Origin: Chiloscyllium plagiosum
Lineage: Eukaryota
DNA: 64,000 bases
Direction: 5' to 3'
Assembly (NCBI RefSeq): GCF_004010195.1
Contig: NC_057760.1
Location: 1,506,963 to 1,570,962 of the forward strand
Below, piece by piece: positions 1-62,730 of the stretch. The notes below the pieces were generated by a model, which searched no databases, was not told the origin of the DNA, and saw nothing but the letters and a program-made list of their open reading frames with translations. Position numbers and translations under genes: made by a program. Positions within the stretch are counted from its first letter, which is position 1. Each line of letters begins with the position of its first letter.

Positions 1-390
1 TTATAGTCCAACAGGTTTAATTTGAAGCACACTAGCTTTCGGAGCGACGCTCCTTCATCAGGTGGTAGTGGAGGGCTCGATCGTAACACGGAATTCATAG
101 CAAAAATTTACAGTGTGATGTAACTGAAATTATACATTGAAACATTGATTGTCTGTTAAGCCTTTCATCTGTTAGAATACAGTGATAGTTTCATTTCTTT
201 CATGTGTAAATCACAAAACCTTTTCTTTAAAGTTGCATTCTCGGATTAGCTGTTAACAATGGTGATAGCTAGACAATAGGTTGAAGGTGTTAGCCCCCTG
301 TGTTCTAATTAAACCTGTTGGACTATAACCTGGTGTTGTATGATTTTTAACTTTGTACACCCCCAGTCCAACACCAGCATCTCCAAATCA
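1..390. mobile_element. Penelope-like terminal-repeat remnant (family 'B'), fold-back arrangement, cut by window edge
   Basis: 1-20 TTATAGTCCAACAGGTTTAA is the reverse complement of 309-328. It has a hammerhead motif on the minus strand, and the same sequence family recurs at 31870, 44880 and 56755. Confidence 0.75.
30..64 (-). ncRNA. Minimal type I hammerhead ribozyme motif (PLE-associated)
   Basis: Minus strand reads CAC-CUGAUGA-A-GGAGC/GUC/GCUCC-GAAA-GCUA-GUG: intact core, 5-bp helix II, palindromic AGCU in place of helix III, and CAC/GUG helix I. Confidence 0.75.
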
Positions 391-540
391 TGACTCCCTC
401 AGCACAGCTGTAATGCTATCCCTTATCAAAAATGCCACTCCCCCTCCTCTTTTGCCTCCCTTTCTATCCTTCCTGTAGCATTTGTTTCCTGGAACATTCA
501 GCTGCCAGTCCTGCCCCTCCCTGAGCCATGTGGCCACATG
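391..540 (-). mobile_element. CR1 LINE fragment (ORF2 N-terminal region)
   Basis: Resembles the endonuclease-region DNA of CR1-type elements; degenerate. Confidence 0.45.
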
Positions 541-554
541 CATGCTCTTCTTGT

Positions 555-945
555 TGGTGGAGGCCTGTGGCCAGTGGCGTGTGACAAGGATCGGTGCTGG
601 GCCCTCTACCTTTTGTCATTTACATAAATGAGTGCTAAATTGCCCGTAGTGTTAGGTAAGAGGTAAATGTAGGGGTACGGGTGGGTTGCGCTTCGGCGGG
701 CCGGTGTGGACTTGTTGGGCCGAAGGGCCTGTTTCCACACTGTAATCTAATCTAATCTAATCTAATTTGGGTGTGAACATAAGAGGTGCAGTTAGTAAGT
801 TTGCAGATGACACCAAAATTGGAGGTGTAGTGGACAGCGAAGAGGGTTACCTCAGATTACAACAGGATCTTGACCAGATGGGCCGAGAAGTGGCAGATGG
901 AGTTTAATTCAGATAAATGCGAGGTGCTGCATTTTGGGGAAAGTA
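555..945 (+). mobile_element. CR1/HER1-like LINE RT fragment interrupted by a SINE
   Basis: Encodes [30 protein letters not shown]; near-identical to 10490-10645 and 40040-40290. Confidence 0.9.
633..766 (+). mobile_element. 5'-truncated HE1-like SINE
   Basis: GCTAAATTGCCCGTAGTG...GGGCCGAAGGGCCTGTTTCCACACTG followed by a (TAATC)n tail. Confidence 0.85.
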
Positions 946-1503
946 TTTACGCAAATAAGAAAATTCAGGAACTCTATGAGTTGCCATGTCCTTCTCAAGG
1001 GGGCAACTAGGGACAGGCAACAAATGCTGGAGATGCCCAAATGCCACAGATAGTCTACTCTGCCTCTAGTTACAGACTTGCCTGCTTCCCACCCTGTTAC
1101 ATTGTCCACTTGAAAGTTTTGGGGATGAGGTGCCTGCCCCTTTAAGAGTTACTGGCTCCGCCCACTCCCAGGTAGGGGGCGTGGCACAACGCGACACCGC
1201 CCACTGAGGCCCGACCAATGGGAGACCGCTCCCGCTCACACGTGACTGAACGCTTCCACCGTTGGAGCCGGTCGCAAAATTGGTTTATTTTTTTTTAAAT
1301 AAAAGAAGCGAAGAAAGTGATCTTAAATCGACCCGAGACATTTCCCAAGGCGAGATAAACAGCCATCCGATACCTTTTAGGCGGGTCGCGGCCTTTATTT
1401 AAGAATTGAATAGAGAGCCGGTGTTTACCTGCCGCGGGGTGGGGCGGGGTTTCCGACCTTAGAGGGGGGTGGGGCGAACCCTACAGCGTGACCGGGATTC
1501 ACA

Positions 1504-2294
1504 CCAATCAGGAAAGGGTATGGGCGGGGCTGCGCCTGACGGACATACGGTTTGACCAGTCGGACGTCGGGGTAGCGTTGACGGCCGGACGCATCATGAT
1601 CGACGGTAATACCAACCAATAGCGTCGGGTGGGCCGGTGACGTGTCCGATGACGGACGGCCGTTCTCACCGATAGGAGCGGAGGAAACGCCCACACGCTT
1701 TGCGAATCCCGCTATGTGACCAATCAGAGGAGGTGTCACCGCCCCAACGTGTAATAACACCACCTACCGGGTGTCGTATGACCAATGGGAGTTCGGGGGC
1801 CTAGATGATGTATAATCACGTTGCGTGTGTCGGGGATGCACCTGATGGATCAATGGCATGCGAGGGTTGGAGCAGGTTGGATGGACAGTTCCCTGGACCA
1901 ATAAGATGTGGGTGACTGGGAGGGTCTTCAGCTATTTTGACAGACCAATGGGGACGAGTTGGATGGACAGCCCCGTGGACTTAATCAATTCAACCGTGGG
2001 CGGAGAATCAGGTAATGGACGTTTCCCTGAGCCAATGCAATAGACAGAGGCGTGTAGTGGGCGGCAACATGAGTGACGGACGTCCCTCTATCCAATGGGT
2101 GACCGGGGGCGGGCAGACACTGGTTTGGAACCCGCCTTTCCTCCAATGGGAGTGACTGGGGGCGGGCATGGGCGGGGAGTATGTCGAGACGGACGGCGGG
2201 AGCGTCCAATGGGACGTCGGGGCGCGCCGACGGACGGCCCCATGACCCAATGGGAGGAGGGAGCCGGGGCGGGCGTGGACTGTGCTGGGCCAAT
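1504..2294 (+). promoter_or_regulatory. Array of co-oriented CCAAT (NF-Y) boxes interleaved with GC boxes
   Basis: CCAAT at 1504, 1616, 1720, 1782, 1898, 1945, 2032, 2092, 2143, 2206, 2247 and 2290 (also 1215), mostly in a CCAAT(G/C)(A/G)G context. Confidence 0.85.
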
Positions 2295-2399
2295 GGCGCC
2301 GAGGGGCGCGTGGCGGGCGGGATCTCCGCCGGCGGCTGTTCGTCGCCCGTCGACGGTGGAGGAACCGAAGGGGGCGGGGAGGCGGCAATTAAAAAAGAA

Positions 2400-3110: not shown

Positions 3111-3115
3111 CCCCC

Positions 3116-3754: not shown

Positions 3755-4130
3755 TTCTTCAGGAATGAGGAAAGTTTGTCTAGCAGGCTAAGATAAAAGG
3801 TAGGGAGGTGGGACTTGGGGGAGGGGCGTCGGAAATGTGATAGGTGGAAAGAGGTCAAGGTGAGGGTGATAGGTCAGACTGGGGTGGGGGCGGAGAGGTC
3901 GGGAAGAAGATTGCAGGTTCGGAAGGCGGTGCTGAATTCGATGGATTTGACTGAGACAAGGTGGGGGGAGGGGGAATGAGGAAACTGGTGAAATCCGAGT
4001 TCATCCCTTGTGGTTGGAGGGTTCCTAGGCGGAAGATGAGGTGTTCTTCCTCCAGCTGTCGTTTATTGTGGTCTGGCGATGGAGGAGTCCAAAGACCTGC
4101 ATATCCTTGGTGGAGTGGGAGGGGGAGTCG
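3755..4130 (-). mobile_element. Penelope-like element 3' fragment (end of GIY-YIG endonuclease plus start of terminal repeat)
   Basis: Minus strand encodes QLEEEHLIFRLGTLQPQGMNSDF, like 53850-53915; ends at CATTCCTGAAGAA, the start of the hammerhead core. Confidence 0.8.
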
Positions 4131-4709
4131 GCCGTGCTAGATTTCCTCTGTATCCAGATATGTACACAGGATGCCGTCGGCTGGTTCACTTATTTCACTG
4201 TCAGAGTTTGTTGGGGCAATGCCTTACTGCGGGGACTTCCAAAACAGCACAAAGCCGTAGCTTGACCGGTGGGTGAGAAGGGTCCATCCCAATCCTTTGG
4301 CACACCCAGCGCCTCAATCCCTCCATAAGCCAGCCTTCGAGTTGGGAAGAGATCACCATAAAGCTCCTTGCAGAATGTACATTTGCATCGCTGATCTAGT
4401 GAGAGAGACCGAGACAGACAGACACAGCGGGTACGACGGCAGACTCTGATCTCCACAGACTGCCCCCAAACCCGTGGATCGAGACAAACATCAACTCGGT
4501 TGCTCAAATTCCCTGCTGGTCTTCTGGAGCAGGGAACCGTTGGGTTCCAAGGCTACATCCCAACTTCCAGCACTACATGATGATGGATGCAGTAAAGCTG
4601 GGAGGCAGCTCTCCTAGAGGCACCCTGGGGCAAAGGATGCTCTGTCTACAACCCTCCTGTCAGCATGCACAGAGGGCCTGGTAACCCTACAGGCTGGGCA
4701 TTTGACATA

Positions 4710-5559: not shown

Positions 5560-5660
5560 CTCAAAAACAGAAATTGCTGGAAAAGCTCAGCGGGTCTGGC
5601 AGCATCTGTGGAGAGAAATCAGAGTTACTTTTTCAGGGCCAGTGACCCTACCTCAGAATG
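5560..5660 (-). mobile_element. PLE terminal-repeat fragment (family 'C') with degenerate hammerhead
   Basis: AAATTGCTGGAAAAGCTCAGC...TCTGGCAGCATCTGTGGAGAGAAA is shared with 8051, 25581, 53235, 58785 and 62530. Confidence 0.65.
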
Positions 5661-6239: not shown

Positions 6240-6438
6240 CCTGTGGAGAGAGGAGGACTACTTCTTCGCGGTAGGCATCCTTGCAAGAGGATTCGCAGTG
6301 AGATTAAAATCAACTAGGCAAAAGTGAGGACTGCAGATGGTGGAAACCAAAGTCTAGCTCAGAATGGGTGCTGGTAAAGCACAGCAGGTCAGGCAGCATC
6401 CGAGGAGCAGGAAAATCGACGTTTCGGGCAAAAGCCCC
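6240..6438 (-). mobile_element. PLE terminal-repeat fragment (family 'A')
   Basis: Minus strand reads GGGCTTTTGCCCGAAACGTCGATTTTCCTGCTCCTCGGATGCTGCCTGACCTGCTGTGC; the hammerhead lacks its CUGANGA box. Confidence 0.75.
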
Positions 6439-7984: not shown

Positions 7985-8050
7985 GTAAACCTTTTTGTTG
8001 CACTCCCTGAAAGTACTGAAGAGCTGGTTCATGATTGAATTGTGCTCATC

Positions 8051-8315
8051 AAAGCAGAGCTTGCTGGAGAAACTCAGCAGATACCGCAGCGTCTGTGGAG
8101 AGAGAAACCAAGGGTTAATGTTTCGAGTTTAGTGACACTTCTTCAGAAATTTTCTGACCTACTCTGAAGAAGGGTCACACTGCAGAGGACTGAAACTTTC
8201 TGAAGATACATCACTGGGCTTGAAACGTTAAATCTTGTTTTCTCACTCCGTGGATGTTGCCAGACTTGCTGAGTTTCTCCAGTAGGTTCTATTTCTGTGT
8301 CTTTCAGATCTCCAG
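8051..8315. mobile_element. PLE family 'C' fold-back remnant
   Basis: Imperfect inverted arms ~8051-8148 and ~8197-8296, each starting at TTCTGAAGA and containing GAAAC(A/G)TTAA. Confidence 0.7.
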
Positions 8316-8669
8316 CATTGATAGTTATTTTCAGGATGGTGTGGCTATTTTGTGGGAGCTCGCAGTGTATAAATTGCTGCCTCACAATGATGACTGCCCT
8401 CCCTCAGAAATTTTCTTGAAGCACTTTGGAGAGTCCCAAGCTTGTGCGGGTGTTTCCTATTAATGTCATGATCACGTACTGTACAAAGAAAGGTCCAGAA
8501 CGATTGGAGATGGGGATGGAGAGTGTGGGAATACATCACTTCCTCTGCAGAAGTGAAGCTTTGTCCTTCATACTGACACAGGGCACTGGAAATTTTATTT
8601 TTATGTGTAAGTGGAGGGTTAGTGTCTCTTCTGCTGCACAGCAGCACATTAGAATCTGGTGTCTTGCGC

Positions 8670-16137: not shown

Positions 16138-16352
16138 AGGGGAGAAAGTGAGGTCTGCAGATGCTGGAGATCAAAGTTGAAACTTTATTGCTGGAACAGC
16201 ACAGCAGGTCAGGCAGCATCCAGGGAACAGGAGATTCGACGTTTCGGGCACAGGCCCTTCTTCCTGAAGAAGGGCCTGTGCCCGAAACGTCGAATCTCCT
16301 GTTCCCTGGATGCTGCCTGACCTGCTGTGCTGTTCCAGCAATAAAGTTTCAA
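16138..16352. mobile_element. Young non-autonomous PLE family 'A' fold-back insert with 14-bp TSD
   Basis: TSD CTGTCATATTTCCT at 16124-16137 and 16353-16366; perfect inverted repeat 16175-16263 / 16266-16354. Confidence 0.9.
16261..16294 (+). ncRNA. Minimal type I hammerhead ribozyme motif
   Basis: UUC-CUGAAGA-A-GGGC/CUGU/GCCC-GAAA-CGUC-GAA: intact core, GUC cleavage triplet, palindromic ACGU. Confidence 0.8.
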
Positions 16353-25172: not shown

Positions 25173-25351
25173 CCTCTCCACAAATGCTCTCAGCTACCAT
25201 TCTCCCCTGCGCTTCCCCCCACACCCCTCTCCCATTTATCTCTCCACCCCAAGGCTCCCAGCCTCATTCCTGATGAAGGGCTCCAGCCCGAAACCTCAAT
25301 TTTTCCTGCTCCTGGGATGCTGCCTAACCTGCTGTGCTTTTCCAGCAACTC
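25173..25351 (+). mobile_element. PLE family 'A' terminal-repeat insert with 10-bp TSD and hammerhead motif
   Basis: TSD TTGACTCTTA at 25163-25172 and 25352-25361; CTGATGAAGGGCTCCAGCCCGAAACCTC at 25270-25297. Confidence 0.8.
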
Positions 25352-25580: not shown

Positions 25581-26060
25581 GAGAAACATAAATTGCTGGA
25601 AAAGTTCAGCAGGTCTGGCAGCATTTGTGGAGGGAAATCACAGTTGACATTTTGGGTCCAGTGCCCTTTCTTAGAACTGATGGTAGCTAGGCAAACATTG
25701 TTTTTTTTTATTGCAGAAGATAGGGTGGATGGAGGGAGTAAGGAGTAAATGATATGTGAAGACAGAGCCCAGAGAGAGAGAATAGTTGGACTGACAAAGG
25801 AATGCATAACAATAGGCCTGGGAGAATAAATAGTTGCTAATGGGCACTATTAGTGTCTAACAATGGGTTGTGTGTAATAGCAGGCCATGTAATTAAAGGC
25901 CTCGTGTGGGGGGTGTTGGGGTAAGGACAAGTCCTAAAATTGTTGAACTCCATATTGAGTCCAGAAGGCTGTAGAATCCCAAGCGGAAAATGAGGAGCTG
26001 TTCTTCCAGCTTGTGCTGAGCTGCACTGGAGCACTGCAGCAAGTCTGAGGCAGAGATGTT
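25581..26060 (-). mobile_element. Penelope-like element 3' end (family 'C')
   Basis: Minus strand encodes FPLGILQPSGLNMEFNNF (GIY-YIG C-terminus), then the family C terminal repeat. Confidence 0.75.
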
Positions 26061-26554
26061 GGCCAAGGAGCAAGGTGGTGTGCTTGAAGTGTTGAGGAGA
26101 GGCAGGATCGTTGCTTTCAGTCATGGGAGGGAACTCCCCTTCCATCTTGCTCCAGTGAGACCAAGGCATTTCCCATCCAATTTATTTCCCATTCAACGAT
26201 CCTGTCTTCACACGAGCAGCCGTGAGTCAAAGGAGAGTGTGACCTTGATGACCTGAAGCTCGCTGGATCCACTGAGTGGCAGTTGTTCTCGGGGGTTTGT
26301 GGAATTATGTAGACTGTTCGCACAGTATGCAAAGCAGGTGCCTGGGAGGGGTTCTCCCTAAGTTTTTTGTCTGAGAGATTTTGCACGAGAAAGTATCTTC
26401 TGAAAAGGTCACTGGTGTGTTTTTTTTTTAATCTTGTTTGACTTTGTCAGAAAAGGATGAATGTTGGGGCGTTTGCGTTGTAGCTGATGTGCGGAAACCA
26501 CTCTCTAGGTAAAGACATTTTCCCTCATCTCAGTCCTGAACAACTTCGCCTGTA

Positions 26555-31865: not shown

Positions 31866-32311
31866 TTGATTTGGAGATGCCGGTGTTGGACTGGGGTGTA
31901 CAAAGTTTAACAATCTCACAACAGCTTATAGTCAGGTGGTGATGAAGGAGCAAGACTCCGAAAGCTAGTGCTTCCAGTTAAACCTTTTGGACTATAACCT
32001 GGTGTTAGGTAAAAACAATGACTGCAGATGCTGGAAACCAGAGTCTCCACCCTTCAGGCTCTCTGCCTCTATTCCTGATGAAGGGCTTTTGTCCGAAACG
32101 TTGATTTTTACTGCTCCTCGGATGCTGCCTGAGCTGCTGTGCTTTTCCCAGCACCACTCTAATCTAGACTCTGGTTTCCAGCATCTGCAGTCATTGTTTT
32201 TACCTAACAACAGGTTATAGTGCAACAGGTTTAATTGGAAGCACTAGCTTTTGGAGAGTTGCTCCTTCATCACCACCTGACTCTAACCTGGTGTGTGTGA
32301 TTTTTAACCTT
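31866..32311. mobile_element. Composite PLE palindrome (family B arms around a family A core) with 10-bp TSD
   Basis: TSD TGGAATTGAA at 31856-31865 and 32312-32321; inverted arms 31926-32046 / 32166-32286; hammerhead-like motifs at ~31938 (+), 32072 (+) and ~32243-32275 (-). Confidence 0.85.
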
Positions 32312-33229
32312 TGGAATTGAAAGTTAGTCTCAACGACAATGACTGTGACAACCATCATCGATTGTTGTACAAACCCTTCTGATTCACCTAAGAGGCAGGA
32401 AGCCTGCCATCCTTAGCCAGTCTGGATCTGCACGTGACTCCGGACTCCACAGAGGCAGGGTCAACCTTTGACTGGCCCTCTGAGTGAGGTTCTTGGTTCC
32501 GGGGCAATAAATGCCCGCAATGCCTATGTCCCATGAAAGAAGCATCTTCTCTCGGGTAAAGATGAACAATAAATACTGGCCAGCCAATGATACCCATGTC
32601 CCACAAATGGAAAAGAAATAAAGAAAAGACTATGTTTCAGCAGCAAGGTTCCCTCATGCCTCAGGGCTCACTCTCTGACAGCCCTGCGAGCAATATGAGG
32701 GGTAATGGTGTTTCGGGAGAGTGGTTCACCATAGGCCCGAGTTCCCGGGCATATCTGGTCAAATGAGTAAATTTCTGTCTCTGTCTCTCCCTGAGACCTT
32801 AACTTCCAATATACGTGTTGTCATAGAGACATAAAGTAATACAGTATGGGAACCGGTCCTTCAGCGCGTTCCAATTGGTCCATATCCCCCTCAGCCCTTC
32901 CCATCCACATCCCTATCCAAATGTTTTTTAAATGTTGCTATTGTACCTGCCTCAACCACATTCTCTGGCAGCCCATTTCATCTGCATGCCACTGTCTGTG
33001 TGAAGAGGTTGCCCCTCAGGTCCTTGTCCTGTCATGTGTCCTTGATTGTAATTGTTACAACAAGCTTGTCTGATGTGACCTCTGGGTGCAGAAGACTAGC
33101 ATTCCACTGGTGGTCCCCATTGTCTCCTCCACCTCACACGTAACACCTGATGCACAGTCACTTGTTACATAGGCAGTTGTGAGTGCCATGGTATGTGTAG
33201 CAAGCTTCCACAAGCCATGATGCAACAGA

Positions 33230-34115
33230 GGTTCACCTGCATCTCCACCGGTGCTCCTGACACAGTCTTCTGTACATTGGTGAGACCTAGCGTAGGCTAG
33301 GTGACTGTTTTGCCATGCATCCTTGCCAGGCCATGCCTAAAAAAGTCAGCCTGACCTCCTGGTCACCACCCATTTCAATTCTCCCTCCCATTCCCCCTCC
33401 GATATAGAGTCATAGAGTATGATGTACAGCACGGAAACAGACCCTTTGGTCCAACTTGTCCACGCTGACCAGATATCCCAACCCAATCTAGTCCCACCTG
33501 CCAGCACCCGGCCCATATCCCTCCAAACTCTTCCTATTCATATACCCATCCAAATGCCTTTTAAATGTTGTCATTGTACCAGCCTCCACCACTTGCTCTG
33601 GCAACTCATTCCATACACGTACCACCCTCTGTGTGAAAAAGTTGCCCCTTTATGTCTCTTTTATATCTTTCCCCTCTCACCCTAAACTTATGCCCTCGAG
33701 TTCGCCATGGTGAATCGGACTACAAATTGGAGGAATGACATCTTATCTTCCACCTGGGCAGCCTCCAGCCCAGAGGACTTAACGTTGAATTCTCCAATTT
33801 CAAATGAACTTGCTAACCATCCCGCAACTCCCTTTCCAGCCTCACTTCCTCCCTTCAATTCCACCTATCGACCCTTCCAGCTACCAACCAGTTTCATCCT
33901 TCCTATCGACCAACCAGGTCACACCCACTATCTGTGTTCACCTATTGGCACTTCGCCATTCCGCTAACCCCTCTTCCCCCAAAATCTGTGGCTTTCCCCT
34001 ACCCCCACATCCTGAAGAAGGGTTATACCTTAAACATTTGACTTCACCACTTCGCTATCTGGCTTGCTATGCTCTTCCAGCCTCCTGATGGTCAACTTTG
34101 GATTCCAGCAGCTGC
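33230..34115 (+). mobile_element. Penelope-like element 3' part, interrupted by an antisense CR1 tail (33405-33700)
   Basis: LYIGET*RRLGDCFA (YIG motif), HLIFHLGSLQPRGLNVEFSNF, and a degenerate hammerhead CTGAAGAAGGGTTATACCTTAAAC at 34012. Confidence 0.8.
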
Positions 34116-34409
34116 CGTTGACTTTTCTGTATGAGTGCACAAATGGCCTGCCCTGTTTTTGACAGGCTTATCGAGCCTGCACCCTTGTTCAGAAAGCCAA
34201 ATCAGCTTCACAATCTGCAGGTGTGCTTCTCGAACAGACTGGGCCCAGTTGGTGGAACTCTCACCTCAGAGTTAGGAGGCTGAATGGTTGAGTTCAGAAT
34301 CCAGAGGCTTGAACATGTAAATCTAGGCTGACACTCTGGGTGCAGAGAGGCTCTGTCTGCTGCCTTGGGTATGGACACCCTAGCCATGATTCTGTCAGTG
34401 GAACTGTCT

Positions 34410-44873: not shown

Positions 44874-45015
44874 TATGGTTTGGAGACGCCGGTGTCGGAC
44901 TGGGGTGGACAAAGTTTAAAAATCACCCAACACCAGGTTATAGTCCAACAGGTTTACTTGGAAGCACTAGCTTTCGGAGCGACGCTGCTTCATCAGGTGG
45001 TTGTGATTTTTAACT
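44874..45015 (-). mobile_element. PLE family 'B' short insert with 11-bp TSD and hammerhead motif
   Basis: TSD TTGGCGATTGT at 44863-44873 and 45016-45026; minus-strand CAC-CUGAUGA-A-GCAGC/GUC/GCUCC-GAAA-GCUA-GUG at 44965-44999; short inverted tail at 45001-45017. Confidence 0.85.
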
Positions 45016-45379: not shown

Positions 45380-45750
45380 AGGTCACTGAGTAGGCGGGGA
45401 GCTGAGTTGTAAGTCGCAACTGCCTGCTATAGCAACCCGACTCTTCCGAATTAAAGAGGAAAGGAATATATCGTTTTAATGTTGGGTTTTTTATGCCAGT
45501 GGGAGAAATGCTGCCCTGGTTACCCGTAGGGAGCCCGCAGAGGGTTAAAAGCACTTCTCTGAGCTTTATGGACGCGACCCTGAGGCGTGGGTGTAGCAGT
45601 CATACTTTCAGAGGTGGGGAACTGGTCTAGTCAAATTACTTAGAGAACTGCCAGGACAGAGTCGAAAGAGAGGGAGGAAAATACGAGTAGATTCCTTGGT
45701 AGATCTGTTGGCATTTGAAGAAGTCCATTCTTCAAGCTTTGAAGAGGAAG
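45380..45750 (+). promoter_or_regulatory. Candidate internal promoter or alternative exon
   Basis: Repeat-free and CpG-enriched; GGCGGGG box, RFX-like CCTGCTATAGCAAC (45423-45436), strong donor AAG|GTAAGA at 45751. Confidence 0.45.
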
Positions 45751-49188: not shown

Positions 49189-49405
49189 CTGACCCTCTGA
49201 TAGCGCGGCCCACCCAGACCGCTGACCCTCTGATAGCGCGGCCCACCCAGACCGCTGACCCTCCGATAGCGCGGCCCTCTCAGACCGCTGACCCTCTGAT
49301 AGCGAGGCCCACCAGACCGCTGACCCTCCGATAGCGCAGCCCTCCCGGACTGCTGACCCTCCGATAGCGCGGCCCACCAGACCACTGACCCTCCGATAGC
49401 GCGAC
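49189..49405 (-). repeat. 33-bp minisatellite inside a Deu-type SINE
   Basis: About 6.5 copies of CTGACCCTC(T/C)GATAGCGCGGCCCACCCAGACCG. Confidence 0.9.
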
Positions 49406-52400
49406 CCGTTCCCTTGGTATATCTACTGGGAGTATCAGCCTGGATCCTTGTGATCGGATTCAGGAATGGGACTTGAACATGTTGACTGAGGAGTGTGAGC
49501 TACACTCATTGAGCACTGGATGACACAGTTGATCCTGCTCTTGTCTTGATACTTTAATATTTCAGTGAATACTGTAGTGGTCTTGATCTCTTCCGCTTGC
49601 TTAGGTATGCCCTTAGCCGATGACTTTGCAGACTCATGCTTTTACCGTGGTCTTGAAAGGGACTTTTAAAGCCTCAAGGCTATTTAATCTATGGGCCAAA
49701 GAAAATCCAGTGTTGCTGTGACCTCTGATAGCTTTGGTCACCACCCACTGGGTTGAGAGTGACCTAGTTTTGTTTTCTGGGGATGGTGAGTGTGTTGTAT
49801 CACATGCAGCACCATTTGGAGCAGCCTAATTAATCCCCCCGGCGTCACTGGAATATCAACTGATTGCTTGTCAATCTGGGGCAGGAAGTGCAGTGTCAGC
49901 ACAGACTAGCAATTGATGCCAATTCAGTAAGCAATGCAAGATTTCCATAAACTAGCTGTGGGCCTTTGAGGTTTCAGCTTCCCAAAAAAAATAAGAAGGC
50001 ATTGTGGTTTGATGGCTGTAATTGGTCCCTGGCCTCCGATTAAGTTGGAGCCCTGATCGCTCCAAGGTCTTTTTTTTTAAAAAAAGTAAAGTAAAAGCAC
50101 ACGGTGTCAACTTCTCAGAGGCGAGCACTTTGGGTAGAAGATTGCTAGCCCTTCCGGGAAATTGCTCCTTCCACCTGGAGCGGGGTAACAGACAGCTGTT
50201 TGTACCTGTGCTAGATGTTGTTGGGGCAGCACTGTGGAGCTGTGTGCGTGCATCATATGCCACAGGGCAGAGCCTGTCCCCTTGACGCAAGAGACACCGT
50301 GGTAGGGAATAGCGAGGGTGGTCCCAGCTGGCAGGATGGGTGGTCTTATCTTTAGTGAGCCAGGCACTCTTCGCCCTCCACATCTCGCATTTTTGGACGT
50401 TTACAAAGCACTTGCTTAGCTGTGCACTTTCACTCTCCCTTTTATTCTGTGGATGGATGCAGCTGTCGCTGACTAGGTTGCCCAGTCCCTAATTGCCCCT
50501 CAGTGTCCTGCTCAGCCCATTTCAGAGGGCAGCTAAGAGTTGACCCCTTTGCTGTGGGGTCTGGAGTCACATGCAGGACTGGACCGGGTCAGGACTGCAG
50601 ATTTCCGTCCCTGTTACTGAATCCCCATGTGGGTTTTTACCACAATCGACAATGGTTGTCATGATCACCATCCCTGCGGCTTTCAATTTCAGACTTTATT
50701 CATTAAGTTTAAACTGCTCCAGGTGCCGTGGTAGCATTTGGACCTGTGTCCCTCAAAACATTAGGCCAGGTCTCTGGGATACCGGTACCAGTAATGTCAC
50801 CACAACGTCAAAATCCCTTCTCTCTTGCAATCAGACAGGCCTCAGATTCCAAGTTACAGGAGAATACTTGGGGACGGATACCAGGTTTGGTGAGGGAGTT
50901 GCATAGCAGAATTGCCTGGAAAGGATGGGTGAGGCTAATTTTACAAAGGCTGCTGTGGGCAAAGCTAACATCAAATGGGCTGAGTCGTCACCTTTGCACA
51001 AATGGATTTCTTCTGAAGTGCCAGACTAATAGAGTCAGTGTGATAAGAGTAGGGGCGATTGGTGCTGAATTGATTGGCCTCTGTGAGGGATAATATGCGC
51101 ATGACACCACAAAGTTAAAGCACGGAGGAGATGAGAGAAATCAGAAACCATTGATGATGTGCTTGGTGATGTGATGATGTGCAAAATCAGCAGTTTTGTG
51201 ATTTTAAAATCCTGCCGATTGCGACTGGGAGAAGGAGACTGAGAGAGCAGGAGGTTGTAAGTCATGAGGAGATTCTGAGCACAGGGGCGAGGCATCCTTT
51301 ACGTCTGTATTGTAGGGAAGGTTGATGCATTTGGGGAATCATTGAGAAACGAAGTGTTGCTTAGAAATAAAAGATCACAGAGAGGAAGCAACGGGAGCTG
51401 AGTGTAAAGACTACAGGGGAGAGGGTGATCTTTATCCAATGAATAGGATTTGACCTGTCCAGTTCCACTGTAATCAGATGGGTCAGATTGGGCAGATGTA
51501 CAAATCCTATCATGCGGTTGGATGGGGGAGCTTAAATGCTAATAAATTTTGCTTGCTTTCCTGGGAGTAGTGTCTCAAAACTGCTCTCATTACAGTGTTA
51601 AAATAATTTATAGATATTGGGAAAAGTGAAGAAATCCTTTACTATTGCTGGCGTGTACTTTAATCTTTGGATAAGTATGATAGAAATGACCTTTCTCTCT
51701 TGTAGTCTCCCTTGCCTGGGCTCTCTTGCCCATGCTCGCCAACTCTCGCACTCACCCTCTCCCTTTCATATCTTATTCCCTCATTCTCTCTTTCTCTCTC
51801 ACCCTTGCATTCTCTCATTCTCTATATTCTACTCAGGTTTTCTCTGTCTTTCACTCTCTCACTCACTCTTGCCCCTGTAACGCCTGGCTCCCCCGACTCT
51901 CCAGCATCCCTGTCTCCAGGCCCCCCCACCCCCTTCTCCAGCCTCCTCCTCACTTTCCAGTATGATCCCTCTCCCGTTGCTTTGGTTATGTAATTTCCTG
52001 ATTTATATTTGTGGTTAATCACTCCTGTGATTTCTCTCTCAATATGTCTTGTTCCACCGCATGTTGTAGGGATATGACTGAACACCTCAGAAAGCTGAAC
52101 TGCATGCAGAATGCCTCAACCTATTTTCTTAGAATGACTTGAAACTTGAAATCCAGTAACTATTTGAGATGTCTGCCTGACAACATAACTATCAGATTAA
52201 AATGGGGAGTTGGACATCACTTGCTGTAGGTTGGCAATTTACGACCATCCACTATCATCAACCAAATAAAGCAAAATGTCAAGGTTAGTTGAAGTGTAGA
52301 GTTTGATGGCTGAATCACGCAAGGAAATCAGACAAGTGGTCTGAGCCTAGGTCAAAGACGTTGGTTTTAAGGAGTGTTTTAAAGGAGGAGAAAGAGAGAG

Positions 52401-52713: not shown

Positions 52714-52807
52714 CTGATGAAGGGCTTATGCCCAAAATGTCGACTCTCCTGCTTCTCGGATACTGTCTGACCCGCTGTGCTTTTCCAGCACCACACTTTT
52801 CTACTCT
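52714..52807 (+). mobile_element. 94-bp PLE family 'A' insert with 11-bp TSD, starting at the hammerhead core
   Basis: TSD GTTTCACTATC at 52703-52713 and 52808-52818; the insert begins CTGATGAAGGGCTTATGCCCAAAATGTC. Confidence 0.85.
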
Positions 52808-53234
52808 GTTTCACTATCTGCTCAATCTTCAGGACATGCTACATTGAGAAATTGAAAGCATTGTGTATCCTCACAATCTTTGCCAAATTTCCTTTGAGTG
52901 ATTTGAGGATATTGAATGTTGTACTTTTTCAGCTTGGTTAACGGATACCAATGTCTGCTACATGTTGTGTCTGTGCTGTCTCTTCCCCAGTGCAATCTAA
53001 AACTGGTAAGAGCCCTGCTCACTCACCTCTGAGCCCTATACCTTCGACAACCTCTAATTGTTTGAATAGCCCTCACTCCCATGTACACCGATGTCAAAAT
53101 GTCTCATACTCCTAATAATTCAGTTAAATTTACCTCATCATCGGCTTGGTACCTTCCAAATTAATGTTTCCTCACCACTGCTCATCAAAACCTTTTTCTC
53201 CTGCTATTTCACCTTGTGGAACCTTGATCAAATC

Positions 53235-54530
53235 TGAAATAAAAGCAGAGTGCGCAGGTCTGGCACTATCTATGGAGAGAGAAACAAAGTTAACGTTTTG
53301 AATCCAGTATGACTATTCTTGCTGTGAAGATGAGCCATATCATATGTCAACAAGATAGAATCCACGCCGCCCCCCGCCCCCCCCCCCCACCGGTCCTCAT
53401 CTTCCACCCCATCAATCTCCAGATACAACATATCATCTTCTGCCATTTCTGCTACATACAGTCAGACCCCACTACCAGAGATCTATTTCCCTCCCCACCC
53501 ATATCAGCATTCTGCAGAGACCATTCCCTCCATGGCTCCCTTGTTAGATCCACACCCCCACTCCCAAATCAGCCTTCACTCCCGGCACCTTCCCTTGCCA
53601 CCGCAAGAGGTGTAAAAACCTGTGCTCACCCCCATCCAAGGCCCCAAAGGATCCTTCCACGTCCGGCAGAGATTTTCCTGCATGTCCAAACACCTCATCT
53701 ACTATGTTCATTGCTCTCGATGTGGTCTCCTCTACATCGGAGAGACAGGACACCAACTCACCAATCCCACCGCCCTATGGCCTCTCCCACACCGTCCAGG
53801 ACATGCAAGAACTGGGCTGCCTCCACCATCCAATCCTAGTCCCCAAATGCCTGGAGGAAGAATGCCTCATCTTCCGCCTTGGGACCCTCCAACCACACAG
53901 CATCAACATTGATTTCGCCAGTTGCCTCATGTCCCCTCCCCCAACCTCATCGCAGATCCAACTCTCCAACTCAGCACCACCAAGCATCAAAACATTTGTT
54001 TATAAAATCATTGAAACCCTAGTGTGGGAGCATGCTATTCAGGCCATCATGTCCACAACAACCCTCTGAACAGCATCCCACCCAGACCATTCCCTACCCC
54101 ATCCCTGTAACCCTGCATTTCCCCTGGCTAATCCAACCAGCCTGCATATTCCTGCAAGCTATGGGCAATTTAGCATGGCCAATCCACCTAAGCTGCACAT
54201 CTTTGAATTGTGGGAGGAAATCGGAGGACCCAAAGGAAACACACGCAGACATGGGGAGAATATGCAAAATCCACACAGACAGTCTAAGGATAGAATCGAA
54301 TCACTGTTCCTGAGCCTATGAGAAACTACGCACTCCTCCTGCCTGGCATCACCATCTCCCCCCCCCCCCCCCCCCGCTCCCTATTTATCGCTCAGCCCTC
54401 TTCCTGCCACATTCCTGATGAAGGGCTTATGCCTGAAATGTTGACTGTCCTGCTCCTCGGATGCTGCCTGACCTGCTGTGCTTTTCTCGCGCCACACTTT
54501 TTGACTCTGATCTCCAGCATCTGCAGTCCT
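53235..54530 (+). mobile_element. Penelope-like element remnant (GIY-YIG endonuclease) with an inverted terminal piece at the 5' end and an HE1-like SINE nested at ~54010-54310
   Basis: HLIYYVHCSRCGLLYIGETG (GIY-YIG) and LEEECLIFRLGTLQPHSINIDF; hammerhead-like CTGATGAAGGGCTTATGCCTGAAATGTT at 54415. Confidence 0.85.
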
Positions 54531-54534
54531 CGTG

Positions 54535-56670
54535 TGGACTTTCTCCATGTGGATGCTCCTATAAGGGGCATGGCAGTGCAGGATCTAATTCTGGGAAATG
54601 AAGCCAGTCAGGTGTTCGAGGTGACAGTGGCAGGTGCATTTTAGTGATTTTTAAGTACAGTTTAGATTTGTTTTGGAAAATGAGAAAGGTGGCCTGTTTT
54701 TAAAAAAACAAAATGGCTTTGCCGTTGTGTAAAGCAGCTGAAAAATGTGTTGCTGGAAAAGTGCAGCAGGTCAGGCAGTGTCCAAGGAGCAGGAGAATCG
54801 ACGTTTCGGGCATAAGCCCTTCTTTGGACTTTATTAAAATAAGTCGGGATTGGGCCAAAATGGGAACAGCTATTTGAGGATAAATCCACAGCACAACAGT
54901 GGGAGGCATTCAAAAAGGTACTGGGGGAGAAGTACAAGCCATGCATTGTTCCCTTTATGATGAAATGTAGGATCAACAAGCCCAGAGGACCATAGATGTC
55001 CAGGAAAGGGGCATCGGAGTGTGGCAACATATTACACTTTTCACCGTGTTTATTTGTTGAATACAAGTGACAATAAATTAGTCAATTCAATTCGATTAAA
55101 TGCAGATACAGAATTTGAGAAAATGGACTCTTGAGCGGATTGATGTAAGGAACAAGGAGGCTTTGGTGAATTTTAAAATGGACAAATCCCCAGATTCGGT
55201 TGAGTTGTATCCTAGATTTCTGCGGTGGGGGGGGGGGGGGCTAAGGAGGAAATTACAGGGGCCCCCAGCCAAATGTTTTAATTGTCTCTGGCCGCAGCGG
55301 TGGTGCCAATTTGCAAGAAGGTTGGTCGACGTAGACAAGGCCAGCGAGTCTTAACATCGGTGGTATGGAAGCTATTGTAGAAAGTAGTTCAGGAGAAAAT
55401 TAATCTCCAGTTAGGGAGGTTAAGGTTCAGTCAGGAATAGTCTGTGTGGCAAGATCAGAGAAAGATCATACCTAAAACAAAAAATCTAGTGGAATCTTTT
55501 TGAGGAGGTGATCAAGTGTTTACTGAAGGTAGCGCAGGTCTTATTGCTTATATGGATTTTAGCAAGGCCTTTGACAAGGTCCCACATCGGAAACCGATTT
55601 TAAAAATGTCAACGGTCCTGGCCAGTTGGATCCAGGATTGGCTTAGCGGTAGGAGGTGGTTGTAGTAGGCTGTTTGTGTGACTGGAGCCCAGTGTGCAAT
55701 GGTGTGCCACAGGCTGCGTTCCTTATTGTTGTGATATTTGCAAATGATAAAGCTGAGAGTGTGGGGGAGATGAGAAGCAAGTTTGTGAATGACCCAAAGG
55801 TAGCAGTAAGGAGGAACCTGTCAGTTTACAGGATGATATAACCGGATTGGTCAGATCAATGGCAAATGGAATTAAACCCCAGTAAATATGAAGTGATACA
55901 TTTTGGAAGAAGGAACAAGGTAAGGGATTACTCATCGAAAGGCAATTTACCAGGAAACACTGAAAAACGTAGGGACTTTGGGGTGCTAGTCCACAGATCC
56001 CTGAAGGTGACAGGACTGTCTAATAGGGTAAGTTAAAGCTAAAAAGGACACTTGCCTTCATCAGTTGTGACAGATTATAAGAGCAGGGAGCTCATGCTGG
56101 AACTGTGCAGAACTTTGGTTAGGCCACAGCTGGAATGCCGTGTGCAGTTTGGGTCACCACACTATGGGAAGGAAATTATTGCGCTGGGCAGGGTGCAAAG
56201 GTGATTCACCAGGATGTTGCTCAGAACAGAGGCTGGATAAACTCAGGTTGTTTTCTTTGGAGCAGAGAAGGCTGGGGAGGGGACCCGATAGAGAGGTCGA
56301 AGATTATGAGGGGTGTGGACAAGCCGAATAGAAAGCAGCTGTTTCCCTCAGTCGAAGAGGGCAATAACAAAGGGGCTTAATTTTAAAGTGAAAGGCAGGA
56401 AGTTTAGAGACAGTTGGAGGAAAATCTTTTTCACCCAAGCGGCGGAAGGGGAGGGGAGCGGTCCTGGAATGCAGGGCCTGGGAGGGTAGTTGAGGCTGGA
56501 AACCTCACAACCATTTCTTAAAAAAAAGTACTTGGATGAGCACATGAAGTATCATAACATTCAAGGCTATGGATTTTGTGCGGGGAAGTGGGACCAGTGT
56601 CGGTAGTCATATATTTTTTGGCAGCACAAACTCAATAGGCTGAGATGCCTCTCCTGCACTGTATTATTCC
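54535..56670 (+). mobile_element. Old CR1 LINE ORF2 remnant with a PLE family A fragment (54735-54824, -) nested
   Basis: MDKSPDS.ELYPR, YMDFSKAFDKVPH, NGVPQ and LVRPQLEC motifs, heavily frameshifted. Confidence 0.85.
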
Positions 56671-56755
56671 ATGGGAGTGGTTGGTGGTGTGTGTGAGATT
56701 TCATGGATGTGTGGAATACAATTTAACCCCCTATTGCATTGCTTGAAAATCATAA

Positions 56756-57281
56756 ATCACACAACACCAGGTTATAGTCCAACAGGTTTAGATTAGATTA
56801 GATTAGATTACATTACATTACAGTGTGGAAACAGGCCCTTCGGCCCAACAAGTCCACACCGACCCGCCGAAGCGCAACCCACCCCATACCCCTACATTTA
56901 CCCTTTACGTAACGCTACGGGCAACTTAGCATGGCCAATTCACCTGACCTACACATCTTTGGACTGCGGGAGGAAACCAGAGCAGCCGGAGGAAACCCAC
57001 GCAGACACGGGGAGAACGTGCAAACTCCACACAGTCAGTTGCCTGAGGCGGGAATTGAACCCGGGTCTCTGGCGCTGTGAGGCAGCAGTGCTAACCACTG
57101 TGCCACTGTGCTGCCCACAAGTGGAGGCACTAGCTTTTAGAGCGCTGCTCCTTCATCAGGTGGATGGTGAAGGAGCAGCATTCCAAAAGCTACTGCTTCC
57201 AAATAAACCTGTTGGACTATGACCTGGTGTTGTGCAATTTTTAATTTTGTACACCCCAGGCCAACACCAGTACCTCCAAAT
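56756..57281. mobile_element. PLE family 'B' fold-back insert carrying a full-length HE1-like SINE (56788-57116, -)
   Basis: Inverted arms resume across the SINE; back-to-back degenerate hammerheads at 57128-57195; imperfect TSD CTTGAAAATCATAA / CTTGAAAGTTATAA. Confidence 0.85.
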
Positions 57282-58103: not shown

Positions 58104-59939
58104 TGTTTTTCTCTCTGGCTTCTTGAGGGCACTGGGAACTTCAGTCAAGTGCCTGGGGGGTGCCCGCAAGTGAGGCTTGCCAAGGCAGCTGGATTAGGGT
58201 GGTAGTATACTGTCGAAATCAGATGTCTGTGGACACAGTGAGACTGTCAGCTTGTGAATGTTCTGAGTCTACTTGCCCCACTCCCAAAACGGTGCATTTC
58301 CCAATCCTTTTCTGTTCAGGAAAAAGAGGTCAACCCTCCCCCTGAACCATTTCAGCTGGGCCATGACTGCTTTAGATCCTCACCGGTCTGTTTGTAGTTA
58401 GAAAAAGGAACAGCCATCATTCCAAACCCTTGAGCCTGCTCCACTGTTCGTGGCTGATCTGATTATTCCACATTCTCATCTTCTCCCAGTAACCTTTCAC
58501 CTCCTTGCTTATCAAAAATCGATCTATTGCTGCCTTAAAAATATTTGAAGATGTTTTTTTCCTCTTTATTCTTTCACAGGGTTGGAGGGTTGCCCATTTG
58601 TTGCCCCCCCCATCCCTATTTTCCCCCTGAACTGAGTGGGCTGTTCCCGAGGACCGTTAAAAGTCAATCCCATCGCTGTGGATCTGGAGTCACACGTAAA
58701 CCCGGATCAGTTAAGGATGCCAGATTTTCTTCCGTAAAAGGCAGTGGGGTATTTTTTTAAAAGGGCGATTTATGACGGTTGCAAGAACAGAAATTGCTGG
58801 GAAAGCTCAGCAGGTCAGGCAGCATCTGTGGAGAGAAAGCAGAGACAAAGTTTCAGCTCCCGGGACTAGCTTTCAATTCCGATTTTATTCGTTGAATTAC
58901 ACAGGACCTGTGGTGGGATTTGAACCTGTGTCGCAGAGGGTGACACCACCACCCTCCCTGCTTCCACTGCCTTCTGAGGAATTCTAAAGACTCATGACTC
59001 TCTGAGATGAAGTATCCCTGCCATCTCTGTCTTTAAATGGGCAGCCCGTTGTTGTTAATCAGTGATGTCCAGTTCTAGAGTCTGTCCCCTCCAGATCCAT
59101 CCTTTCAGCATCTCTCACACTTCAGTCAAATTGCTCCTCACTTTTCCAAATTCGAGAAACCATAAGTTTAGCCTATCCAAACATCCTGCCTGGGGCAACC
59201 AGTCCATTCCTTAGCCTGGTGAAACTGTATTGAACTTCCTTCCTTAAATAATGAGATCAGTGCTGGACATGGTGGTCCAGATGTGGTTCCATTTAATGCC
59301 CAGAATAACTGAAGTATAATCTTCCTTGGCGGAGCAGACTTACTTATTTCTATTTGCTGTCTTTAATTTATCTGTTATATTTAACTACATGCCCAAACAA
59401 GCTAATGAACCTGTTGGGTGATTGCAAAAGATGAGGCTTGTGTACTTTTGCCCATTGGATCTCCTTACGTGCCTCACTAGCACTGTCACATCGTCCTGAA
59501 CCTGACTGTTGAGCAGGTTGGATGACCATGTTCTAAGGGGTGTTACTGCCCCCAGTATGAAGCATCCAGGGCAACCTTCGTCTCTCCCTGACTTGTTGCG
59601 GTGACTGAAGATCAACCTCCAGCTCATAAACTCTGAGCTAAAGCTACTAGAACCACAAATACTGCAGATGCGTTTGTCCTGAATTTTCACTGACATTGAG
59701 GGCTCCCACAAGCTGCAGCTGTGACACATCCCCATGTCTGCCACCCTGAACATATTTGATTCAAATAATTTTAATAATTGAATCATTTTCACTTTTAAGT
59801 ATTGTATTACCTCAAAGCACCACTGTTTTGAATCTTTCGAATAGTATAGATGCTCAGCACTTACCATTAAACGATTAGCCTCTTTCTCTGTAGTGGAGTA
59901 TGAGCTAATCCTACAAGGTGAAAATGTTAGAAAAGGCAA

Positions 59940-60490
59940 AATCGAAGGAACACCCAAGTCCCTTACTCTGGCAACTGCCAGCACTCTCACCCTCAGTATC
60001 CACTTCCATGTCCTACACCTCCTTATCTCTGTCACCACCTTACATCCACCCCATCTCNNNNNNNNNNNNNNNNNNNNNNNNCTGTAAAGCCTTCTCCAGC
60101 TCCTATACCCCCCCCATCCCTATTTCTATAATTTCCTCCAGCCCATACACTCCTCCCTATCTCTATAACATCTTCATGGCCCTGCACCTCTCCCCATTTC
60201 AGTAGATTTCTGCAGTTGTCCACTTTCAGCTCCTTGTGATACCTGATATCCAGTGTTCCACTGTGCGCGGCTGTACTTTCAGCTGAGTTGGGCCCTAAGC
60301 CTTAGAATTCCCTCCCTAAACCTCCCCGTCTCTCTGTCTCTCCTGCTTTAAGATGCTCCTTAAAACTGACCTGTTTTATCTAGTTTTGGATGCCTGTCTG
60401 TTCTAATTGATGCACTCTGTTTTTGAAGTGCCTTGGAGCCTTTTATTACATTAATTGCACTGTGTAAATGTAAGACAACAAAGTTGTTAT
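59940..60490 (+). mobile_element. L2-type LINE 3' end
   Basis: CTTCATGGCCCTGCACCTC...GGCCCTAAGC...AATTCCCTCCCTAAACCTC...TTTAAGATGCTCCTTAAAAC...TGTAAATGTAAG tail. Confidence 0.6.
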
Positions 60491-61234
60491 CTGAGAGAGG
60501 AGCCCAAGGCCTTGACCTTTAGGGTCAAGGGCAAAAAGGCACAGAGATGTCTCAGGCTGTGCAAGAACCCCATGCACGTGTTCCAGTGTGGAAATGCCAG
60601 GCGACTATGGAAACCATTGCGTCTGAGAGCGGGCCTCCAGCAAAGCCTGGTACGCAGCCCTGTGCTGGGATCACACCTACCTCCCAGAGCAAACGGGGTG
60701 TTTTTTCACAACTGCACGCAAAAGCAGATCGTAAAGTTGACACGTTCAGAGGCTAATATGTGTTAGATCATATCTGAACAGGAAGAGGCCATTCGTCTCC
60801 TGCATCCTGTTCCCAGACTCCATCTACCCGCCCTTGCCCCATGTCCCTTAATACTTTGATGAGCAATTATCTATCAATCTCAAATTTAAAATCTTGCAAA
60901 AGGGTACCAAGTTTCTCTCACCCATTGAAATGTTCTCTCATTCCACTTCTGACGTGTTGTGCTCTAATTTCTTTTAACTCTATTCCTTAGTCCTGGACTC
61001 CCCAGCTTGCGGTATTAGCTTCTTTGCAGCTGTTCTATCAATTCCACTTCATCAACACCTTTACTCTTCTAAATTCCAGGGAATACCATTGAAGACCAGG
61101 TGACATTCTAGGTAATCTACACTGCAGCGACTCAAAGCCTGTCGGTCATGCCCAAGGTGCTAGAGACATTTTTTTGGAGGGCAGAGGTTTGGCGAGAGGG
61201 GAAGGAGGAAGATCTGTCCATCTGGAGCTTGGAG

Positions 61235-61770
61235 AGTCATAGAGCTGTAGAGCATGGAAATAGAACCTTCGGCCCAAATCATCCTTGCCGGCCAGATATC
61301 CTAAATTAATCTAGTCCCATTTACTAGCATTTGGCCTATATTCCGCTGAACCTTTCCTATTCATATACCCATCCGGATGCCTTTTAAATGTTACAGTTGT
61401 ACCCGCCTCCACCACTGCCTCTGGCAGCTCATTCCTTACATGCATCACCCTCTGCATGAAGCATTTGCCCATCAAGTCCCTTTTATATCTTTCCCCTCTC
61501 ACCTTAAACCTATGGCCTCTAGTTTTGGACTCCCCTACCCTGGGGAAAAGACTTTAGCTATTCACCCTACCCATGCCCCTGATGATTTCATAAACCTCTA
61601 AAAGGTCACCTCAGTCTCCAATGCTCCAGGGAAAACAGCCCCAGCCTATTCAACCTCTCCTTTTCATTCAAACCTTCCAACTCCAGCAATACCCTTGTAA
61701 ATCTTCTCTGCGTCCTTTCAAGTTTAACATCTTTCCTATAGAAGGGAGCAGCTGTGTTGTACAGTACATA
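61235..61770 (-). mobile_element. CR1 LINE 3' end
   Basis: RKDVKLERTQRRFTRVLLELEGL..RLNRLGLFSLEHWRLR. Confidence 0.9.
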
Positions 61771-62529
61771 CCAGACCTGGTTCTTTACCATGCCTCTCCT
61801 GTGCACTCTCTGTCCCCTGTTCTGCTCCCAGTTGAACCTCTCTCAGTTAGTGGGGAGCTCCGCACTCATCTCCATGGATCATGTTGAAGGGTTCAATGCT
61901 CTGTTCCTGTTCTAATGTCAAACCTGATGGCATGAACCTGCCCCTCTTCCTGCTCAAAGGAGGAATTCTGTTCGGCTTGTGTCCCTGTCCTTCCAAGTTT
62001 GTGTTAATCTGGCTTTGTCAGGTGTAGTCTGTAAAGTTTAGGATGAGTCAGGAATGATATGTTGTGTGTGATAGTTGTTCACAACTTAAAGGTCCTTTTA
62101 TTTTTGGTGAGTGACTACGCCTTCAGTTGCCTCAACGTTAAACTCTGGAATTTGCTTAGTTACAACCAAGTGAGGAGGGTTGAATCAGCTCCTTTGTTTT
62201 TTCACCGCTCTCATTCAGTTGTAATAAATATTGAAAATACTTTTTAATATTCAGCTGTCTCATGTCAATTAAAATGTAGTAGTGGTGAAAATGAAGGGAC
62301 AAGTTTTGCTTGAGTGGGATAAAGAGGAATTACTAACTCCAAGATAACTAATAAACTACAACATCAAATACACATTTAAAGTGGGAGTGTCTAAAAGAAA
62401 GATAAGGATTGTAAAATTTTAAAAGTTCTAAAATAGTCATTAAGTGTTAGAGTTGAACCTGAGACCACAGCTTTTTGGCTGATTCTCTGCAGGACCACGT
62501 TTGCAGAATCCTTGAGTTCTCGCTCAACA

Positions 62530-62730
62530 AAGACAAAATACTGTGGATGCTGGAAATCTGAAACAAAAGCAAAGAATGTGGGAGAAACTCAGTAAGTCTG
62601 GTGCCATCTATAGAGAGAGAAACGGAAGTTAACTTTTCTAAAGAAGAACCATATCAGAGTCAAAGCATTAACTTATGTTTCTCTCTCCACTGATGCTGTC
62701 AGACCTCCTGAATTTCTCCGCATTCTCTAT
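62530..62730. mobile_element. Old PLE family 'C' fold-back remnant
   Basis: Imperfect inverted arms turning at ~62635 (TTCTAAAGAAG). Confidence 0.6.

Follow-up and report, generated by a model that had tools for sequence, protein, structure and literature searches.

What are the many short, hammerhead-bearing inserts that crowd a 64,000-nucleotide stretch of the genome of Chiloscyllium plagiosum, an elasmobranch? The stretch (contig NC_057760.1, positions 1,506,963 to 1,570,962; hereafter the window) had been described in a first-pass annotation as holding more than 15 remnants of minimal type I hammerhead ribozymes (HHRs) in three families, read as Penelope-derived, non-autonomous elements that behave like short interspersed nuclear elements (SINEs) or miniature inverted-repeat transposable elements (MITEs). 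The ribozymes and their origin from Penelope-like elements (PLEs) stand up to analysis. The inserts themselves are very probably dead-on-arrival, 5'-truncated copies of at least four endonuclease-bearing (EN+) PLE families of the Neptune/Nematis type.

Hammerhead motifs and terminal-repeat families

The window was searched with descriptors of increasing stringency. The loose pattern CTGAWGA-N8..36-GAAA matches 13 times versus 4.3 +/- 2.2 expected (100 shuffles), the core with a helix II of at least 4 bp and GAAA matches 5 times versus a mean of 0.065 (200 shuffles), and the full hammerhead descriptor matches twice versus 0 (200 shuffles). An Rfam scan of the window at the gathering threshold gave 0 matches. 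The copies passing the full descriptor are only 37-61 on the minus strand and 16264-16291 on the plus strand, exactly the two that had been picked for a cleavage assay (30-64 and 16261-16294). The motifs carry the features of their class, namely a helix II framed by CUGANGA and GAAA boxes and preceded by a single extra base, the pair G10.1-C11.1, and a palindromic 15.1-16.1 tetramer that reads ACGT in families A and C and AGCT in 6/6 tabulated family B arms and in a marine-metagenome locus, L002, described below. NUH cut triplets are GUC (A), CUA (B) and GUU (C and some A).

Covariation of the helices, proposed earlier as a check, is found between families in helix I (I.1 CG/TA; I.2 TA/AT), helix II (II.3 GC/AT; II.4 CG/GC/TA) and helix III (CG/GC, the ACGT/AGCT tetramer); the result concerns changes between families and not within them. 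A MAFFT alignment shifted family B by one column, so covarying pairs were counted on hand-anchored rows. These form a table of 19 window arms, in which one row is 1 nt off, a row that has no 5' core in any case. Both core boxes are kept in 8 of the 19 tabulated arms; six arms lack G12, a loss that resembles CpG decay. Among the 40 family B variants listed of 93, loop II holds three and helix II has two CpG transitions, with none in the core boxes or the tetramer; a young family could explain this low core variation without selection.

The census of the window, with loci delimited by eye from blastn and nhmmer matches, comprises 19 insertion loci and about 29 terminal-repeat (pseudo-long terminal repeat, pLTR) arms, most of them decayed, which bears out the earlier count of remnants. 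The three families named before are retained (A 10, B 10 and C 8 arms) and a fourth, D, at 34012, had gone unnamed. The A, C and D pLTRs cross-match each other and B stands apart. Loci are given below with their untranslated regions (UTRs), open reading frame (ORF) ends and target-site duplications (TSDs).

1..392, minus strand: family B copy, 3'UTR 62-300, intact minimal HHR 33-61, predicted cut between 33 and 32; hexamer ATTAAA 15-20 and poly(A) site near 4; plus-strand inverted tail arm 303-392
3760..4147, minus strand: PLE ORF end (past GIY-YIG) and 3'UTR leading into a family A core stub, whose pLTR breaks off after the first core box
5562..5660, minus strand: family C pLTR, decayed HHR, beginning about 2 nt above the core
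6315..6437, minus strand: family A pLTR with tail, beginning at helix II
8050..8331: family C fold-back, decayed cores at 8146 (minus), 8164 (plus) and 8200 (plus)
16138..16352: young fold-back of family A, its 94-bp arms 98% complementary, 14-bp TSD; tailed arm on the minus strand, tail-less arm on the plus strand with intact minimal HHR 16264-16291
25176..25351, plus strand: tail-less copy of family A with 94 nt of 3'UTR, helix III of the HHR broken, TSD 12/13
25582..26105, minus strand: family C copy, ORF end 25977-26105, 3'UTR, decayed HHR at 25674
31866..32311: composite, family B fold-back with 10-bp TSD, enclosing a copy of family A at 32004-32207 (HHR 32075) plus an inverted B-arm duplicate
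33225..34120, plus strand: family D copy, GIY-YIG/ORF end 33225-33406 and 33646-33804, split by a SINE; 3'UTR; decayed HHR 34012
44874..45015, minus strand: family B copy with tail, HHR 44996 mismatched at one helix II pair, a short arm in inverted orientation, TSD of 11 bp
52714..52807, plus strand: family A insert of 94 bp, beginning at the core, G12 lost, tail-less, 11-bp TSD
53228..53980: inverted family C pLTR 53228-53318 (minus) abutting an ORF end 53430-53930 (plus) with frameshifted linker and GIY-YIG, CX4CxxC read across the frameshift
54330..54531, plus strand: family A 3'UTR and pLTR, HHR 54415, tetramer non-palindromic
54741..54824, minus strand: tail-less family A pLTR, beginning inside the core
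56756..57281: family B fold-back, junction 57158-57165, nested SINE 56788-57120, TSD 12/14; plus-strand arm retains AATAAA and a GU-rich element
58786..58864, minus strand: family C pLTR, beginning in helix II
62521..62729: family C fold-back, decayed, with its junction at the HHR (62632-62668)

In the composite at 31866-32311 the B arm is duplicated in inverted orientation over 130 nt, and a direct repeat is present (14/15 at 31990/32279); the composite arose either by nested insertion, the target being duplicated in inverted orientation, or in a single event. At 8164-8234 (plus) two decayed family C cores stand head-to-tail, 36 nt apart, as a short partial tandem. The 3'-side break of the ORF-bearing family A copy at 3760-3770 (minus) also lies at the ribozyme. 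SINE copies, which we take to be of the HE1 type, sit inside three PLE copies (56788-57120, 33410-33645 and about 54000-54320), so those PLE insertions are older than the SINE events.

Insertion ends and linked reading frames

End positions were counted relative to the hammerhead C3. The main 5' breakpoint falls between -13 and +20 in 11 of the 19 loci, at -28 in one and farther upstream in seven, for an overall range of about -790 to +20. None of the 19 primary copies begins at or below the predicted cut site; the copies include helix II and often the core. Under uniform stopping, 11/11 near the core has p near 1e-5, a value that refers to an interval picked post hoc and to copies that may be non-independent. 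DNA contigs were aligned to window positions 1-540 (48,081 records in set X1 and 56,805 in set X19); among the 15 joints listed of 323, 11 join positions 62-73, just above the core, to varied points of the inverted tail. Summed contig depth in X1 (about 3 million over the ribozyme versus 0.4-1.5 million upstream) does not measure copy number and was not taken as such. That splicing to an acceptor immediately above the core caused these 5' ends is not supported, as the C copies have no exon-like upstream sequence in common.

The 3' ends fall into two classes about 35 nt apart (+81..93 or +127..132 in family A; about +85 or +119..122 in family B), and the stretch between them is the PLE tail. 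The tail-less end recurs in the contigs as loose ends at 351/354 next to unrelated AT-rich flanks (236 + 339 in X1, 390 in X19). An inverted second arm, giving a head-to-head fold-back, is present at 9 of the 19 loci. TSDs of 10-14 bp had been reported for six inserts, and five of these stand, with that at 56756 imperfect. Exact duplications measure 14 bp (16124/16353), 10 bp (31856/32312), 11 bp (44863/45016) and 11 bp (52703/52808), and mismatched ones are 12/13 at 25163/25352 and 12/14 at 56742/57282; in a control, an exact repeat of at least 9 nt occurred in 1 of 400 random window pairs. The 526-bp insert at 56756 owes about 335 bp to the nested, unrelated SINE. The same six inserts, described as non-coding, indeed gave no tblastn match to PLE proteins.

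The link to GIY-YIG-bearing elements was traced through a 49-residue piece (53616-53762), which as a query returned 370 proteins. From 150 of these 370 listed, nine homologues were scanned; GIY-YIG was found in 8/9 (four above the Pfam cut-off), and four of the proteins also match RVT_1 (two above it). The two named protein matches are from the stingray Hypanus sabinus. Tblastn with matches below 1000 aa placed four ORF ends in the window, at 3957-4147, 25977-26105, 33225-33804 and 53430-53930. After a 3'UTR, the first three continue into a terminal repeat, which is a core stub of family A in the first, a C pLTR in the second and a D pLTR in the third; the fourth sits between an inverted C arm and an A copy. 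A CX4CxxC linker is read near 53590, across the frameshift, and the same motif occurs in homologues P0064 and P0107. A CX2-5CxxC linker ahead of the endonuclease is the mark of Neptune and Nematis (PMC8557442), and together with GIY-YIG it points to an EN+ PLE of the Neptune/Nematis type, without separating the two groups. A direct Pfam scan of five window ORF fragments yielded 0 families, and two word-seeded homologue searches with short fragments gave no match.

For family B the link to GIY-YIG comes by way of the metagenome. A marine-metagenome scan returned two loci, L001 (1-1050) and L002 (1-1470). In L002 a GIY-YIG ORF end is followed, about 750 nt downstream, by a family B-type hammerhead (33/35 nt identical), the 3'UTR measuring about 770 nt, and in L001 an L002-type end abuts an inverted reverse transcriptase (RT) piece, as at an inverted-pLTR junction. 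The flanks of both loci could not be aligned to the window. The near-identity of the two hammerheads could reflect either convergence or strong constraint.

Folding, family B RNA and genomic setting

Predicted folding in genomic context differs sharply between copies. Helix II probability is 0 for 16264, which lies inside its 94-bp fold-back duplex, at most 0.02 for 32075, 44996 and 57159, and at most 0.07 for 54415, as against 0.77 for 25270, where helix III is broken, and 0.93 for 37-61. In cofolding, the minimum free energy structure favours other pairings over the double hammerhead, a result that is not decisive on dimer cleavage. Cleavage by PLE hammerheads takes a dimer or the help of a protein (PMC4209133, PMC11167929), and the dimer-dependent reaction is weak (PMC4209133, PMC6765202). 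The ribozyme is probably a passenger here that would call for a second copy to form helix III; at most loci it is mutated or locked in duplex and probably has no effect on host RNA.

RNA was examined in set X21, a poly(A)-primed single-cell library of which about 2 in 100 reads were sampled; 3094 reads aligned at 88% likeness. They stem from many genomic copies, and the number of source loci could be few. A second set, X22, yielded no aligned reads. Depth over the ribozyme is 1256 with the first mate on the plus strand versus 88 on the minus strand, a bias that indicates RNA in the sense of the family B element. Reads span the ribozyme uncut at a depth of about 1250, and no pile-up of beginnings or ends is listed at the predicted cut site, which in a library primed on poly(A) is a weak test. 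At place 4, 342 reads carry a loose end of oligo-dT; in a second class of 177 reads a T run stands where the X1 and X19 contigs show ordinary sequence, so the A tail of the RNA is non-genomic. Family B supplies a working poly(A) signal. Its site lies 13-15 nt below the hexamer, with a GU-rich stretch following; the hexamer is AATAAA in the RNA reads (loose-end consensus, place 30) and ATTAAA, AATAAA, AGTAAA or GTTAAA in window arms, and L002 has AATAAA 18 nt below its predicted cut. The poly(A) site stands about 30 nt below the predicted cut and above both 3' ends, so that polyadenylated RNA would be primable only in the 5' pLTR or in a read-through tandem. A two-fold drop in RNA depth at 73-90 was rejected as support for 5' truncation; with barcode and oligo-dT accounted for, the first mate runs out at about this point, and loose ends at 73 and 142 also arise from subfamily divergence.

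As for the setting, a CpG island at 1150-2560 (GC 0.58, CpG observed/expected 1.02, 15 CCAAT boxes in 1.4 kb versus a window mean of about 2 per kb) forms a promoter (1150-2563) whose probable first exon, on the plus strand, closes at a GTAAGA donor at 2563. The island and this donor make it plausible that most inserts are intronic; no convincing coding exon of a host gene was found in the window. A search of sequencing runs with the promoter stretch listed no RNA set containing it. A possible second promoter or exon lies at 45410-45750 (plus), with a palindrome near 45416 that we take to be X-box-like. Within it, a 139-nt stretch bounded by AG..GTAAGA (45612-45750) is open in one frame, and this candidate exon has no Atlas or PDB match. 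On the probable host sense strand, the family B arm 57165-57281 (plus), with AATAAA and a GU-rich element, is a candidate cryptic intronic poly(A) site near 57220.

The window also holds a GC-rich minisatellite family of 33-34 bp on both strands (18296-18542, 34418-34578, 35724-35893, 43050-43284 and 49189-49407) and, unlike it, a separate 34-bp array at 28586-28856. Two inverted LINE (long interspersed nuclear element) 3' ends, at 40977-41435 and 41912-42361, are 72-77% complementary. The other repeats are presumably HE1-type SINEs and CR1-like LINEs.

Origin of the short inserts and relation to known systems

A PLE protein nicks AT-rich DNA and primes reverse transcription within the uncleaved RNA, at two sites some 120 nt downstream of the hammerhead (PMC11167929). 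Applied here, most copies would stop at the hammerhead core, because either the RNA 5' end or an RT stall lies there. We give run-off at the RNA end somewhat less than an even chance of being the cause, and a structural stall neither more nor less than that. A cDNA stopped at the ribozyme would be closed by fold-back or direct joining, giving mini-inserts of 90-220 bp made by the autonomous element itself, and a cDNA continuing past it would yield 3'UTR and ORF ends. The clustering of breakpoints at the core and the position of the poly(A) site fit run-off cDNAs of the 5' repeat that failed a template jump. In Drosophila virilis the RNA starts 46 nt upstream, with a 75-nt intron in addition (PMC2377424, PMC4209133). 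We raise tentatively, as a rather unlikely extension, that the pLTR might act like a retroviral R-U5: the RNA would start at the hammerhead, the 3' copy would end at the poly(A) site about 30 nt below the cut, both RT start sites would lie only in the 5' copy, and the mini-inserts would be strong-stop-like cDNAs failing the jump. Helix III would then pair the ends for the jump rather than cut, and very many family B copies would give shark genes working poly(A) sites.

Several points weigh against truncated autonomous copies as the source. A strong concentration of 5' ends is equally expected from short master copies; neither an RT domain nor a full-length element was seen in the window; family B has no ORF link there, only a motif match in another organism (L002); whether the ORF piece 53430-53930 belongs to A or to C is uncertain; and the census rests on one window and one read set. 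Dedicated non-autonomous families, SINE/MITE-like or made of non-LTR retrozyme monomers, would have just such masters, mobilised in trans by PLE protein. They would explain why 11 of 19 loci begin at the ribozyme, and agree with the similar fold-back junctions of two B loci (31934-31940 and 57158-57165) and with the single TSD pair of the composite at 31866, which may have moved as a unit; in rotifers pLTRs are enough for mobilisation in trans (PMC3846280), and retrozymes occur as non-autonomous PLE derivatives in one chondrichthyan (10.64898/2026.07.22.740005). We nevertheless consider such families unlikely, because junctions vary at the nucleotide level within and between families, in the window and in the contigs (from 62, 64, 66, 69, 70, 73 to 303-361), and because the same ends run into ORFs at four loci. 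No head-to-tail array of intact hammerheads occurs among 31 Tandem Repeats Finder (TRF) rows, the doubled core at 8164/8200 being decayed. The inverted arm, tail and TSD are, moreover, the standard PLE insertion signature. What survives of the SINE/MITE-like description is the short ribozyme insert as a real pattern, with 5' ends concentrated at the ribozyme; a sub-lineage with a fixed junction is possible among the mini-inserts.

Alternatively, the hammerhead could cut the element RNA so that the cut end defines the template, the inserts being copies of the 3' cleavage product and sense copies cutting host pre-mRNA. Conservation of core and helices across diverged families and L002, where flanks are not conserved, suits this idea, as does the published cleavage as dimers or with protein. 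It is very unlikely all the same: every primary copy starts above the cut site, the 3094 RNA reads offer no pile-up (with the weakness noted), and helix II is predicted hardly to form in context at 16264, 32075, 44996 and 57159. Chance look-alikes of a short motif in unrelated repeats can be practically dismissed; the loose pattern alone is expected about four times and Rfam is silent, yet the structured counts, the compensatory pairs across families and the fixed position relative to tail and ORF end refute this reading. Truncation of autonomous PLE copies is the reading we retain; the ORF ends of four loci tie A, C and D to it, and L002 does so for B. The further claim that introns are being seeded with self-cleaving motifs was overstated: most cores are broken, 16264 is locked in duplex, the intact 37-61 lies upstream of the promoter, and a minimal HHR needs a partner copy and cleaves poorly in vitro (PMC4209133). 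The PLE ends are real and mostly inert.

The role of PLE hammerheads and the extension of internally primed cDNA beyond unit length are questions of mechanism. Many young copies with breakpoints at the ribozyme, together with a mappable RNA 3' end, make that mechanism testable by counting, and the features worth pursuing genome-wide are the clustered breakpoints and the family B poly(A) site. Use of such poly(A) sites within host genes, if it occurs, would be a more likely host effect than self-cleavage. Neither the clustering nor the polyadenylation of family B RNA was found in the literature searched, which left most subscription papers outside, and that literature gave no matching report of elasmobranch hammerhead ribozymes. 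PLE-derived retrozymes are described in one chondrichthyan (10.64898/2026.07.22.740005), and a whale shark paper mentions Penelope. The available part of PMC4209133 names fish, coelacanth, Xenopus and reptiles as hosts of minimal HHRs, and not sharks; its supplements and those of 10.64898/2026.07.22.740005 may list families A-D.

PLE insertions are known for an inverted pLTR, a 30-40 bp tail, 5' truncation and TSDs of 8-10 bp (PMC8557442, PMC3846280). With Neptune/Nematis EN+ PLEs the window elements share the C-terminal GIY-YIG, the zinc-finger-like linker, 5' truncation, an inverted 5' pLTR, an optional tail and a TSD. They differ from canonical examples in TSDs of 10-14 bp, against 8-10 bp in rotifers, and in having neither a full-length copy nor RT in the window. 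The Poseidon element of Anolis (PAc, PMC11167929) likewise has two 3' ends bounding a 30-40 nt tail, AT-rich flanks and no RNA ends at the cut site; the distal 3' end lies about 120 nt below C3 here, and the PAc RT start 111-118 nt from stem II. In contrast to PAc, the window ORF pieces carry the Neptune/Nematis CX4CxxC linker. A word search of PMC11167929 found no mention of polyadenylation or template switching. Non-LTR retrozymes (10.64898/2026.07.22.740005) are similarly non-coding, PLE-derived, dispersed monomers with a type I hammerhead, whereas the window shows no tandem units with complete hammerheads and has PLE tails, inverted arms and four ORF ends. With the minimal HHRs of metazoan PLE pLTRs (PMC4209133) the copies share the CUGANGA/GAAA boxes, the extra nucleotide before helix II, G10.1-C11.1, a palindromic helix III (ACGU/AGCU), the presence of several covarying families in one genome, a majority of solitary truncated copies, and pairs on opposite strands; they differ in a helix II of 4-5 bp and a helix I of only 3-4 bp. 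Ribozymes of this class, and their place in PLEs, have been on record since 2014 (PMC4209133), and the present locus adds a host lineage and families.

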